From: Obrimoposthia wandeli
Lineage: Eukaryota
Assembly: GCA_977020255.1 (NCBI GenBank)
Contig: CDROCS010000066.1
Location: forward strand, 62,001-126,000
Length of the DNA: 64,000 bases
Reading direction: 5' to 3'
Position numbers and translations under genes: made by a program. This document shows positions 25,459-29,269 of this stretch, piece after piece. Every line of letters starts with the position of its first letter. Positions within the stretch are counted from its first letter, which is position 1. The notes under the pieces are model-generated. The model was not told where the DNA came from and ran no database searches. It saw only the letters and a list, made by a program, of their open reading frames with translations.

Positions 25459-26020
25459 TGTTAGGTTTAGGAATTAGGAAATTAAAATAATTAGTCGATT
25501 AAATACTAAAATAAAAATCCTTGAAAGCAAGGTTGAAAATTAAATTAAATATTAATTTTAGATTCAAAATTAAAATTAGTGGAAGTTAGGATAAAAATTA
25601 GGAGGACCACGAAGGTCGTGTATAGTGTGGGATATATAAGGTTAGATTAATTAACCCAAAAGTGCAAAAAAGCAAAATAAGGGAACTGTCAGCAGAAAGA
25701 AAATCTAACGTCAATCAAAGGTAAGCACATTTTCGTGCAGTTAATTTGGACTAATTAAATTAATTCAGCTGCCGCCAGAACCGGACTCACGCTAGAATAT
25801 TCAGCTAATTTCATTTAACAGCTGCCAAGCCCAGACCAAGTCGACTATATAAGTCGCTGGAGAAACTAGAAGAAAAAAGAGGCACAAAAAATCGATCACC
25901 TGAAGTTTGTCAGAACGAAACAGGAATCAATATCCCAAGTCGACCGAAGCAGCAACCGGAGAAATAGACAGGTGAAATTTTGGTGTTTGTAATCATTAAG
26001 AAATAAACTATTTTAGATCA
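25459..26020 (+). promoter_or_regulatory. LTR-like module A
   Basis: TG start; TATATAA at 25633 and 25846; donors AAG|GTAAGC (25721) and CAG|GTGAAA (25972); AATAAA near 26002; ends TTTAGATCA. Confidence 0.75.
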
Positions 26021-26031
26021 CCTTGGTCGAC

Positions 26032-26627
26032 ATTGCTGAAAACGAAATTGATTGTTAAAGAATATCATTAATATTGCTGAAAAGAATATCAATTTATTGC
26101 TGAAAAGAAATTGATTGTTTAAAAGAATATCATTAATATTGCTGAAAAGAATATCAATTTATTGTTGAAAACGAAATTGATTGTTAAAAGAATATCATTA
26201 ATATTGCTGAAAAGAATATCAATTTATTGCTGAAAAGACATTGATTGTTTAAAAGAATATCATTAATATTGCTGAAAAGAATATCAATTTATTGCTGAAA
26301 AGAAATTGATTGTTTAAAAGAATATCATTAATATTGCTGAAAAGAATATCAATTTATTGTTGAAAACGAAATTGATTGTTAAAAGAATATCATTAATATT
26401 GCTGAAAAGAATATCAATTTATTGCTGAAAAGACATTGATTGTTTAAAAGAATATCATTAATATTGCTGAAAAGAATATCAATTTATTGCTGAAAAGAAA
26501 TTGATGGTTTAAAAGAATATCATTAATATTGCTGAAAAGAATATCAATTTATTGCTGAAAAGACATTGATTGTTTAAAAGAATATCATTAATATTGCTGA
26601 AAAGAATATCAATTTATTGCTGGAAAG
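26032..26627. repeat. Tandem array A, 9 copies of 65 bp
   Basis: Unit ATTGCTGAAAAGAAATTGATTGTTTAAAAGAATATCATTAAT-ATTGCTGAAAAGAATATCAATTT starts at 26032, 26096, 26161, 26226, 26291, 26356, 26421, 26486 and 26551. Confidence 0.95.
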
Positions 26628-26719
26628 AAGACGATCCCACAAGTTCGTCAATACTACATACGGATCCTGTACCGGAATTTCGAGCAACATATAGGTGAGA
26701 ACACAGACAATTCATACTC

Positions 26720-29269
26720 ATGACAGATGCAAGTAACTATGCTGTAGGAGCAGTATTGGGACAAGAGGATGACGAAGGAAGAGAACACGTCATCGCGTAT
26801 GCGAGTAGAGGATTAAACAGAGCCGAAAGAGGATACTCTGTTATCGAAAAGGAATGTCTAGCCATAGTGTATTCATGTAGACAGTACAGACATTATTTGC
26901 TAGGACAAAAAGTATTCCTGTATACAGATCACAAACCACTACAGTTCTTATATAAACATAGAGATGAGATGAGTAGATTAAACAGATGGTTTCTAAAATT
27001 GGCCGAATTCGATCTAGAAATCCGTTATAGAACCGGAAAGTCGAACGGCAACGCAGATTGTTTGTCGAGATTGACAAATGTAGACGAGAAAGGAAACATA
27101 ATTCCAGAAGAAGATGAAACCAATGACCAAAAAGGAGAAGCAAATCTACTGACGATTTTGCTAAAGACGGGTAAAATAGACAAAGAGATCATCAAAGAAC
27201 AGAAAGAAGATGAAGAACTGAGTCTAATCAAAGAATTGTTGGTGAAAGGAGATCTAAACGATGAAATGACGAAAAAATACTCGATAAAAGAAGGAATCTT
27301 GTATATTGTCAATAACGTCGGAAAGATAGTAGTAGTAATTCCGAAGTCATTGAAAACAGCAGTGATGATCCAGTATCACGATGGAACACTAGGAGGACAT
27401 CTGTCAGGGCGAAAGACAATAGCCAGAATCAAAGAGAAGTACCATTGGGATGGTATGGAAGACGACATAAAACAATGGTGTAAACAATGTAAAGTATGTT
27501 TAACCAGAAAAGACACCGGAACTCGTACTAAAGTTCCACTGAAACCAATGACAGTTCCTTTGGCACCAATGGAATTCACAGCGATGGATATATTGGGACC
27601 ATTGAGAGAATCAAGTAAAGGAAACAAGTACGTCATAGTATTTACGGATGACATGACGAGATGGGTAGAAGCATATCCCATGCAAAACCAGAAAGCTGAA
27701 ACAATAGCGCAGATCTTAGTGGAAGAGATAATATTTCGATACGGAGTGCCTAGAAAGTTGTTAACGGATCAAGGTAAGAACTTCACTGGAGAAGTCATAA
27801 AAGCAGTATCGAAGATATTCGGAATCATGAAGTTACAAACTTCACCATATCACCCACAGACAGATGGTCTGGTAGAAAGGTTTAATAAAACTTTATGTAT
27901 GATGGTACAATCCTATTGCTCAGACAAGCAAGAGGATTGGGATAAATATTTACCTTCATGTTTATATGCTTACAGGAATTCAGTTCGAGAGGCGACGGGT
28001 CACACACCATTCTATCTGATGTATCTCAGACAGAACAATATGCCGATGGATCTGGAGTGGACCGAGCCAACATCTCAGTATCTAGAAACTGAACAATACA
28101 TTGTCGTCATGAAGGAAAGATTACAAGATGCTTGGACCAAAGCCGGATTGAAGTTGAAATTCAATCAAGAAGGTTACAAGGAACAATACGACAAAAAAGC
28201 AAAACCACATGAATGTAGAGTCGGAGATCAAGTGATGATATTTTATCCAGTCATCGAACCAGGTCTATCGTTTAAACTTCATAGACCATACAAAGGACCA
28301 TACAAGGTGATCCAGACAACCTCAACAAATTTGAAAGTAATCAACGAAGAGAATCGGAACAAGGAACCGATGATTGTACATGCAATTCGATGCAAATTAG
28401 TACCAAATAAAGATAATGCGTCACGATATGAGTTAAGATCACAGAAATCGAAGCCAAATACCAATACCATTAAACTTACACGAATGGTAAGTGATCGGAA
28501 CTACATAAACATGATGACGAGTGGTAGCGAGGAAAAACCAGCGAGAATTGGTATGCTCAGAATGAAGTACCAAGAGGAAAAGGAAGTAATCCGACACATC
28601 GCACCACAAGAGATATTAGAAGAAGACGAAGAGATAATAGTTGTTTTCGAAAAAACACAACCAACAGATGTGGCGAAAGAAGTCATTGTGAAAGATGCAC
28701 TAACAAACGAATTTCTGTGCGAACTTAGAGTGTCATACTATGACGGGAATACACTAGTCGCAGCGCTTTATCAAAATTCCAATGTGTTTACGACTGAGAA
28801 AGTGATAATCGAAATCACATTGACACCAAACATAGTTGCATGGCAGAACTATGACAGTACTGAAGCAGGACTAGCCAGTCAGGAAGAAAAAGAACCGGCC
28901 GGTGGTCACATACTGCATGGTACACCAAAAAGACTCAAACAAGAATACCACGATGTAATAATGGTATTACGTAATTCACATGGGAAAAGAGATATCATGA
29001 GAGTCCATTTAATCGACGCTGACACTGAAAAGATAATTTGTCAGATGGACACCAAATACTTTGATGGAAAGACAATTGTATGTTGTATACCAGAATCTCA
29101 CCGGTTAGACACAGATCAAACGGAAGTATCTGTAAGGTTGAGCGTAATAGAAGGATTTCATTCGCCAGGCCAACCGGAAGTGACCAACAATAAAATTATC
29201 AAAGCAACGGCAGAGTTACGCATTGACAGCGGATACCGGAAGTGGGAAGCTAAAAATAAAAAACCATAA
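26720..29269 (+). CDS. ORF1: Gypsy RNase H, integrase (HHCC, DD35E, GPY/F) and two IPT/TIG-like repeats; no RT
   Basis: TDAS, EKECLA, TDHKPL, NADCLSR; H...GGH...C..C; MDILGP, LTDQG, DGLVERFN; KGPYKV. Intact 849-aa frame. Confidence 0.93.
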   Translation: MTDASNYAVGAVLGQEDDEGREHVIAYASRGLNRAERGYSVIEKECLAIVYSCRQYRHYLLGQKVFLYTDHKPLQFLYKHRDEMSRLNRWFLKLAEFDLEIRYRTGKSNGNADCLSRLTNVDEKGNIIPEEDETNDQKGEANLLTILLKTGKIDKEIIKEQKEDEELSLIKELLVKGDLNDEMTKKYSIKEGILYIVNNVGKIVVVIPKSLKTAVMIQYHDGTLGGHLSGRKTIARIKEKYHWDGMEDDIKQWCKQCKVCLTRKDTGTRTKVPLKPMTVPLAPMEFTAMDILGPLRESSKGNKYVIVFTDDMTRWVEAYPMQNQKAETIAQILVEEIIFRYGVPRKLLTDQGKNFTGEVIKAVSKIFGIMKLQTSPYHPQTDGLVERFNKTLCMMVQSYCSDKQEDWDKYLPSCLYAYRNSVREATGHTPFYLMYLRQNNMPMDLEWTEPTSQYLETEQYIVVMKERLQDAWTKAGLKLKFNQEGYKEQYDKKAKPHECRVGDQVMIFYPVIEPGLSFKLHRPYKGPYKVIQTTSTNLKVINEENRNKEPMIVHAIRCKLVPNKDNASRYELRSQKSKPNTNTIKLTRMVSDRNYINMMTSGSEEKPARIGMLRMKYQEEKEVIRHIAPQEILEEDEEIIVVFEKTQPTDVAKEVIVKDALTNEFLCELRVSYYDGNTLVAALYQNSNVFTTEKVIIEITLTPNIVAWQNYDSTEAGLASQEEKEPAGGHILHGTPKRLKQEYHDVIMVLRNSHGKRDIMRVHLIDADTEKIICQMDTKYFDGKTIVCCIPESHRLDTDQTEVSVRLSVIEGFHSPGQPEVTNNKIIKATAELRIDSGYRKWEAKNKKP

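Follow-up and report, generated by a model that had tools for sequence, protein, structure and literature searches.

The 64,000-nucleotide (nt) stretch of contig CDROCS010000066.1 from Obrimoposthia wandeli analysed here, referred to as the window, carries a retroelement insertion at 25459–37602 in which an RNase H-integrase frame stands without Gag, protease or reverse transcriptase (RT). Very probably, this insertion is one defective copy from a Ty3/Gypsy family that is very large, has recently been active and encodes a Burro-like polyprotein, and its lack of RT is the result of an ordinary internal deletion. The element body is cut at the boundary between RT and RNase H, and near-identical contigs in public sequencing runs leave the window at the same position into the end of an RT. 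The long terminal repeats (LTRs) of the copy belong to two subtypes, here called A and B. The features needed for the argument are as follows.

25455–25458 (+ strand): left target-site duplication, 4 nt, identical to the 4 nt at 37603–37606
25459–25671 (+ strand): shared part of the 5′ LTR, probably the U3 (unique 3′) region, beginning with TG and with a TATA box at 25633; 213 of 213 nt identical to 35632–35844
25672–26031 (+ strand): LTR module A, comprising the second TATA box (25846) and a pair of short intron-like GT-AG segments (25721–25768 and 25972–26016); homologous to module B
26032–26629 (+ strand): array A, 9.2 copies of a 65-nt unit whose unit-to-unit joint also occurs in public contigs
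26630–26705 (+ strand): end of the foreign, A-type block, with a possible A-type LTR end near 26689 plus 16 nt, as suggested by a weak likeness
26705–26706 (+ strand): deletion junction, at which Gag, protease, RT and probably also Env (a viral-type fusion glycoprotein) are missing; top loose end in all four runs compared
26706–27070 (+ strand): RNase H domain without its RT connection; PF17917 (RT_RNaseH), E 2e-38
27338–28440 (+ strand): integrase with zinc finger, DD35E core and C-terminal part; PF17921 (Integrase_H2C2) and PF00665 (rve)
29267–29269 (+ strand): in-frame stop peculiar to this copy; another letter stands at 29267 in 99.3–99.8% of the summed contig depth of three runs
35632–37602 (+ strand): 3′ LTR of type B, 1971 nt, ending with CA and composed of the shared 213 nt, module B and arrays
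37603–37606 (+ strand): right target-site duplication, matching the left one

RT-bearing sister copies diverge at the RT/RNase H boundary

Five public runs contain the stretch, and four of them (three of a single sample, plus a marine metagenome that belongs to a second study) were compared over 26566–36140. Between 240,000 and 283,000 contigs aligned per run in the first sample; depth does not equal copy number, and the family is probably present in thousands of copies. The first-listed loose end lay at 26706 in all four runs (59, 49, 48 and 1 contigs; more than 6601 loose ends in total). Read by eye, the loose letters at this position encode a Pro-x-Leu-x-x-Pro-Asp motif, which in relatives closes the RT connection just 5′ of RNase H. 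A 965-nt contig of the second study matches 26706–27063 with 4 differences in 358 nt and continues into the same RT end motif. An RT-bearing form of the family exists, and since near-identical contigs leave the window at 26706 into the RT end motif, the present copy is a deletion derivative of it.

No measurable depth was detected 5′ of 26706 in the compared runs. The first depth bin was no higher than expected from the RNase H part alone (505k versus 528k, 295k versus 300k and 254k versus 256k), so that forms joining array A to RNase H can make up no more than a small minority in these runs. The family frequently carries internal deletions: of the 15 joints listed, 14 are skips of 35–4557 nt (202 further joints were counted). 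A preliminary description of this DNA had offered two options, an internal deletion and one partner of a bipartite system, and had reasoned that near-identical full-length copies, with this one alone deleted, would speak for the former. Near-identical contigs in which the RT end motif leads into the RNase H of this copy were recovered from four of four runs, which upholds the deletion and not the bipartite system; as to further copies with the same deletion, the depth 5′ of the junction allows a small minority at most.

RNase H and integrase are intact in sequence

Following a TGA at 26696–26698 the frame reads EHRQFILMTDAS and extends over 26699–33697 with a single stop at 29267–29269. As the true junction lies at 26705/26706, the TGA and the two leading residues (EH) are still part of the foreign block upstream. 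The RNase H acidic residues (D, E, D, D) and the integrase DD35E residues are intact, and these four plus three acidic positions are common to all 11 aligned relatives. RNase H followed by an integrase with zinc finger and DD35E core corresponds to the Ty3/Gypsy order, and the closest solved structure is Ty3 Gag-Pol (7q5b, E 3e-51). Pfam searches of P0001 and P0002 revealed no RVT_1, protease or gag domain. When the N-terminal parts of 11 relatives were compared with the whole insertion by tblastn, 4 weak matches were obtained (best E 0.013), none of them 5′ of RNase H. The Gag, protease and RT that stand upstream in a Ty3/Gypsy element are thus missing from the present copy; the sole LTR-type RT in the window is a decayed one in the minus-strand Gypsy that hosts the insertion. 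Our results agree with the preliminary description that all catalytic residues are present, that 7 kb of coding sequence contains one stop and that nothing upstream encodes Gag, protease or RT. It had also set the frame right after array A; the TGA was placed correctly, but the frame starts 70 nt past the array. We also considered splicing into RNase H, by way of the AG/GTGAG near 26695, and rejected it, because it would put the TGA in frame or drop the start of the domain; moreover, the site is within the foreign block.

The intact look of RNase H and integrase reflects the youth of the copy rather than working enzymes. Ty3 integrase is carried into particles as a portion of Gag-Pol, from which protease releases it, and RNase H of the Ty3 type requires its connection to RT. 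Given this packaging route, the absence of protease and a first ATG (26720) that immediately precedes the first catalytic Asp of RNase H, the present copy could not plausibly supply integrase in trans.

The insertion results from one integration into an older Gypsy element

The insertion starts with TG, ends with CA and is flanked by a 4-bp duplication, as is typical of Ty3/Gypsy elements. It lies in an older element of opposite orientation.

21916–39542 (− strand): older decayed Gypsy receiving the insertion, recognised by an LTR pair and broken pol domains

The host LTRs (21916–22301 and 39109–39542) share 75% identity, and RT, RNase H and integrase of this element are broken (22930–25012), with a protease motif near 25300. 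Separate translation of the insertion flanks revealed that each holds half of one Gag motif of the host Gypsy, situated just ahead of the host protease; we take the split motif to be of the Cys-His type. There was one integration: the TG and CA ends, the matching duplication and the cleanly split host gene, half of whose motif is found in either flank, assign both ends of the insertion to the same event. The host Gypsy is of a different lineage, with about 30–35% identity to the relatives of the insertion. Rfam gave 0 matches across 25400–37700. Ginger DNA transposons have a Gypsy-like integrase only, terminal inverted repeats and no RNase H. A transposon of this type was rejected, because no inverted repeats of at least 40 nt were found at the insertion ends and RNase H is present.

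The two LTRs are of different subtypes

A Ty3/Gypsy element is expected to have a near-identical LTR pair, which this copy lacks. Its LTRs are identical over 213 nt, beyond which 44% of the alignment columns differ and the arrays differ too (34-nt array B at 36147–36711 and further arrays at 36771–37084 in the type B 3′ LTR). Modules A and B each keep, at matching places, the second TATA box and two GT-AG segments of 43–48 nt, which are intron-like and may be mini-introns. The break between the LTRs comes 38 nt after the first TATA box starts. In the public runs the module B bin reaches 0.5% of the body depth, and a loose end at 35811 marks where other copies diverge from the window just past the first TATA box. 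The LTR behind the TATA box is therefore highly variable in the family; the family body is mostly 95–99% alike.

The copy fits best with a B-type element where a 1034-nt A-type block (25672–26705) stands in place of everything up to RNase H. A single event appears to have swapped the sequence from LTR position 213 to RNase H for this block of the other subtype. Position 26689 is an uncertain candidate for the true LTR end. Public contigs display a tandem unit of ~33 nt at 26620–26648 (depth 203 in run X2), which indicates that other A-type copies have a second array there.

Template switching during reverse transcription is the most likely origin of the exchange, at a little under an even chance. 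A minus strand primed on B-type RNA would copy the body back to RNase H and would then switch to a co-packaged RNA of type A at its 5′ end. Transfer of the plus strand would use the region of partial likeness that follows the shared 213 nt, and enzymes of the particle itself would integrate the recombinant product. This route predicts a break at the transcription start together with a matching duplication, and provided that the first TATA box serves as promoter, both expectations agree with the copy. In Onsen and Ty1, co-packaged RNAs are described to recombine pairwise (PMC5668417 and PMC6894440), and two-parent insertions with a target-site duplication are described for Triticeae (PMC1950507). 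The present copy resembles the Triticeae complex elements (PMC1950507) and Onsen/COPIA78 (PMC5668417) in having two parents, one insertion and a matching duplication. In contrast, the recombinants described there have alike outer LTRs, whereas here 213 nt agree and the body is shortened rather than doubled. Nearly as likely as template switching is a break after insertion, which would have been mended by one-sided copying, with an A-type LTR at another place as the donor. A nested insertion with two later events, or mis-assembly, would account for the small remainder. LTR swapping was reportedly described in soybean by Du et al. in 2010.

Substitutions of the copy point to a young, unselected insertion

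The stop at 29267 is absent from sister copies, and the family polyprotein is therefore continuous across this position; read-through of the stop was rejected on the same ground. For a codon test, 40 of the 732 differing sites were listed, of which the 35 in frame were used and the 5 outside the frame excluded. Rare sites, defined by a differing letter in ≥99% of the depth, numbered 18 and were distributed over codon positions 1/2/3 as 7/5/6, with P 0.59 for a third-position excess. By comparison, 10 of the 17 sites shared with a sublineage were at third positions (P 0.027), and pooling all 35 sites gave 16 (P 0.087). Residues 318 and 563 of the copy break columns that are invariant in 11 of 11 relatives. 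The preliminary description had proposed a search for purifying selection on the RT-less form. With 6 of 18 rare sites at third positions, a private stop and two broken invariant columns, such selection is not seen on the copy's own substitutions in a test of low power. The pattern, based on small numbers, is that of selected ancestors and an unselected last branch.

Rare substitutions amount to about 0.3% of the copy; these unselected changes, one stop included, accrued after the copy arose. At this rate the probability of zero differences in the 213-nt LTR pair is 0.33. Their absence is thus plausible, and both clocks agree on a young insertion. The deletion had been called fresh, which is roughly right in view of the 213 of 213 identical LTR positions and the low share of rare substitutions.

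Accessory domains follow the integrase

Downstream of the integrase the polyprotein continues with additional domains and is followed by three separate open reading frames (ORFs).

30050–30990 (+ strand): two tandem dual-specificity-phosphatase (DUSP) domains; PF00782, E 9e-41, in 2 stretches
31000–33697 (+ strand): polyprotein tail with four hydrophobic segments, from hydropathy
33818–34117 (+ strand): RING-finger ORF 1; PF13639, E 5e-9
34178–34483 (+ strand): RING-finger ORF 2; PF13639, E 8e-9
34823–35320 (+ strand): RING-finger ORF 3, variable in the family; PF13639, E 3e-8

The first phosphatase domain retains the HCxxGxSRS loop and the second is without it; the closest solved structure is DUSP10 (E 2e-24). 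A homolog search with the phosphatase region returned 3 long matches, none of them with an integrase. No Pfam family was found in the tail, and its Atlas matches (spike, poxvirus) were rejected, as their value of 0.76 is below chance level. In the two bins covering the third RING region (34886–35525) depth falls to 8–17% of the body. RING ORFs 1 and 2 are alike by eye and ORF 3 is rare within the family. After ORF 3 comes a triple repeat of 23 nt (35316–35384). A literature search with poor coverage of subscription journals yielded no paper on a Gypsy element that combines Env within the polyprotein and a cargo of phosphatase and RING genes; supplements or repeat libraries may already describe the family.

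The family is related to Env-bearing Gypsy elements

The best protein relatives share 45–56% identity over RNase H-integrase, and two homolog searches found no protein above 61% identity. Altogether 246 proteins matched, with 25 rows at 44% identity or more. An RT motif is present upstream in the same chain in 14 of these close relatives, while 5 (3 clusters) start at RNase H and 6 start further inside. The starts at RNase H may be truncations, because the 6 others begin at scattered internal Met residues. PF24664, the viral-type fusion glycoprotein, was detected upstream of protease in 5 of the 8 relatives scanned. P0128 (3735 aa) has the order CCHC-Env-PR-RT-RH-IN (PR, protease; RH, RNase H; IN, integrase), and ankyrin repeats occur in two relatives. 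P0001 was placed by a quick tree of 41 rows in a clade of 18 rows including 4 Env bearers (SH-aLRT 99). Among viral_contigs, 19 pattern matches contained 0 relatives. In metagenome_contigs, 2 loci were obtained out of 135 matches, one of which (L001) starts inside the integrase, with a RING ORF downstream and nothing on the RT side. In L001 (54% identity) accessory ORFs are located after the polyprotein at 2684–6448, one of them RING-like and one, of 707 aa, exonuclease-like by eye. The close relatives P0012 and P0132 are labelled as bacterial metagenome bins and are most likely misbinned contigs of eukaryotic retroelements.

Burro/GYPSM1, a giant planarian Gypsy, is described in PMC6431247 as having a huge PR-RT-RH-IN polyprotein, captured regulatory domains, accessory ORFs, thousands of copies and an Env in frame between Gag and protease. 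The present element is like Burro in its captured regulatory domains and accessory ORFs (phosphatase pair and three RING ORFs), and its relatives share the Env ahead of protease and the ankyrin repeats. In contrast to Burro, the cargo comprises a tandem phosphatase and three free RING ORFs rather than BIR, BCL2 or MATH. The likeness is one of layout, as the Env region is deleted here and Burro sequences are outside the tree; the element would work like a Burro-type element. Yeast Ty3 (Metaviridae) has the same RNase H-integrase order and catalytic residues. Compared with Ty3, the present element is far longer and has accessory genes and LTRs of 1–2 kb with arrays, and the copy is without Gag, protease and RT.

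Alternative explanations

Several observations weigh against reading the insertion as a simple deletion copy. At each loose end 30 nt adjoining the junction are visible, and a whole gag-pol is not among them. No contig bridging 26705/26706 occurred among the matches listed, and low-copy siblings of the junction are possible. Of 1000 shuffles, 31 matched the likeness between the end of the A block and the 3′ LTR end, and unrelated tiles of the window exceeded it. Neither a primer-binding site (no TGG start after 26689) nor a polypurine tract (no plain purine run before 35632) was seen. Among the 25 close relatives, the five beginning at RNase H (P0003 group, P0133 and P0134) are seen as proteins only; they are the single result that favours the preliminary description's idea. 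The codon test rests on the 35 best-supported of the 732 sites and has little power. Finally, the runs contain 0.92–0.93 of the window words, equal to the 0.922 expected without the rare letters of the copy, so that they probably stem from an individual other than that of the window.

A bolder proposal, which we regard as unlikely, starts from a family constant in its polyprotein and the first 213 LTR bases. Such a family would swap downstream LTR cassettes at reverse transcription, the present copy would be a swap from a trans-mobilised RT-less A-type RNA, and the MAP-kinase-phosphatase-like enzyme and the RING ligases would act on host signalling.

It is quite unlikely that the copy is a recombinant daughter, with a B-type 3′ LTR, of a small non-autonomous subfamily in which an A-type LTR, RNase H-integrase and accessory genes are copied in trans. 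Mixed LTRs within one matching duplication fit such a co-packaging of two subtypes. The array A joints in public contigs reach a depth of 109 (X2) compared with a median of 23 for the 14 listed deletion joints; however, a single 9-unit array suffices for this depth. Replication of this kind and recombination of co-packaged RNAs are described in PMC6894440, PMC5668417 and PMC3977881, the last on Tos17, which lacks gag and was shown to move. Like Tos17, the present copy is missing a coding part and would need supply in trans; in contrast to Tos17, the analysis here detected neither amplification nor selection of the deleted form. The lack of measurable depth 5′ of 26706, the missing canonical primer site and purine tract and the absence of selection on the copy's own substitutions also speak against a subfamily.

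A bipartite system, in which a partner provides Gag and RT and the present element integrase and accessory genes, is largely refuted and very improbable. The intact catalytic residues, the long frame and the three clusters of relatives starting at RNase H would fit it. However, most of the family carries RT sequence in continuity with this RNase H and integrase, and no partner is therefore needed to supply integrase. In addition, the stop and the changes at conserved sites are private to the present copy, its first ATG stands directly ahead of the first catalytic Asp, and the database proteins with RNase H starts may be truncated, as noted above. Equally improbable is an assembly chimera of several family copies: very high copy number, the 213-nt identical repeat and the lack of a bridging contig among the matches listed would favour mis-joins, but the duplication matches, the host gene continues on both sides, the 26705/26706 join is not via homology and 7 kb are free of frameshifts. 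The insertion thus remains, very probably, a deletion copy of an RT-bearing family.

Other features of the window

A broken RT (41284–42171) within 41284–43603 looks like a non-LTR type; the segment downstream of it, to 43603, presumably is a restriction-like endonuclease-like domain. A divergent tubulin fragment, probably a single exon, is located at 14941–15720 (Tubulin_C, E 3e-30). Five inverted repeat pairs at 20362–20882 and 45705–46229, ~25 kb apart, represent one repeat in two opposite copies that bracket the nested elements. On the minus strand a 400-aa open frame without a Pfam match (56591–57793) adjoins a 24-nt tandem repeat (56384–56481).

Implications

The RT-less state of the copy is ordinary decay and nothing new; attention is due to the mixed LTRs and to the cargo. 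LTR finders and LTR-based dating would be misled by repeats that agree over 213 nt and carry different cassettes beyond; such repeats would also document, in nature, how strands are transferred from one subtype to another. Moreover, the Burro-like lineage with Env in the polyprotein appears to be wide, with relatives of 45–56% identity in many metagenome assemblies, and is found here together with a DUSP-like pair and RING genes.

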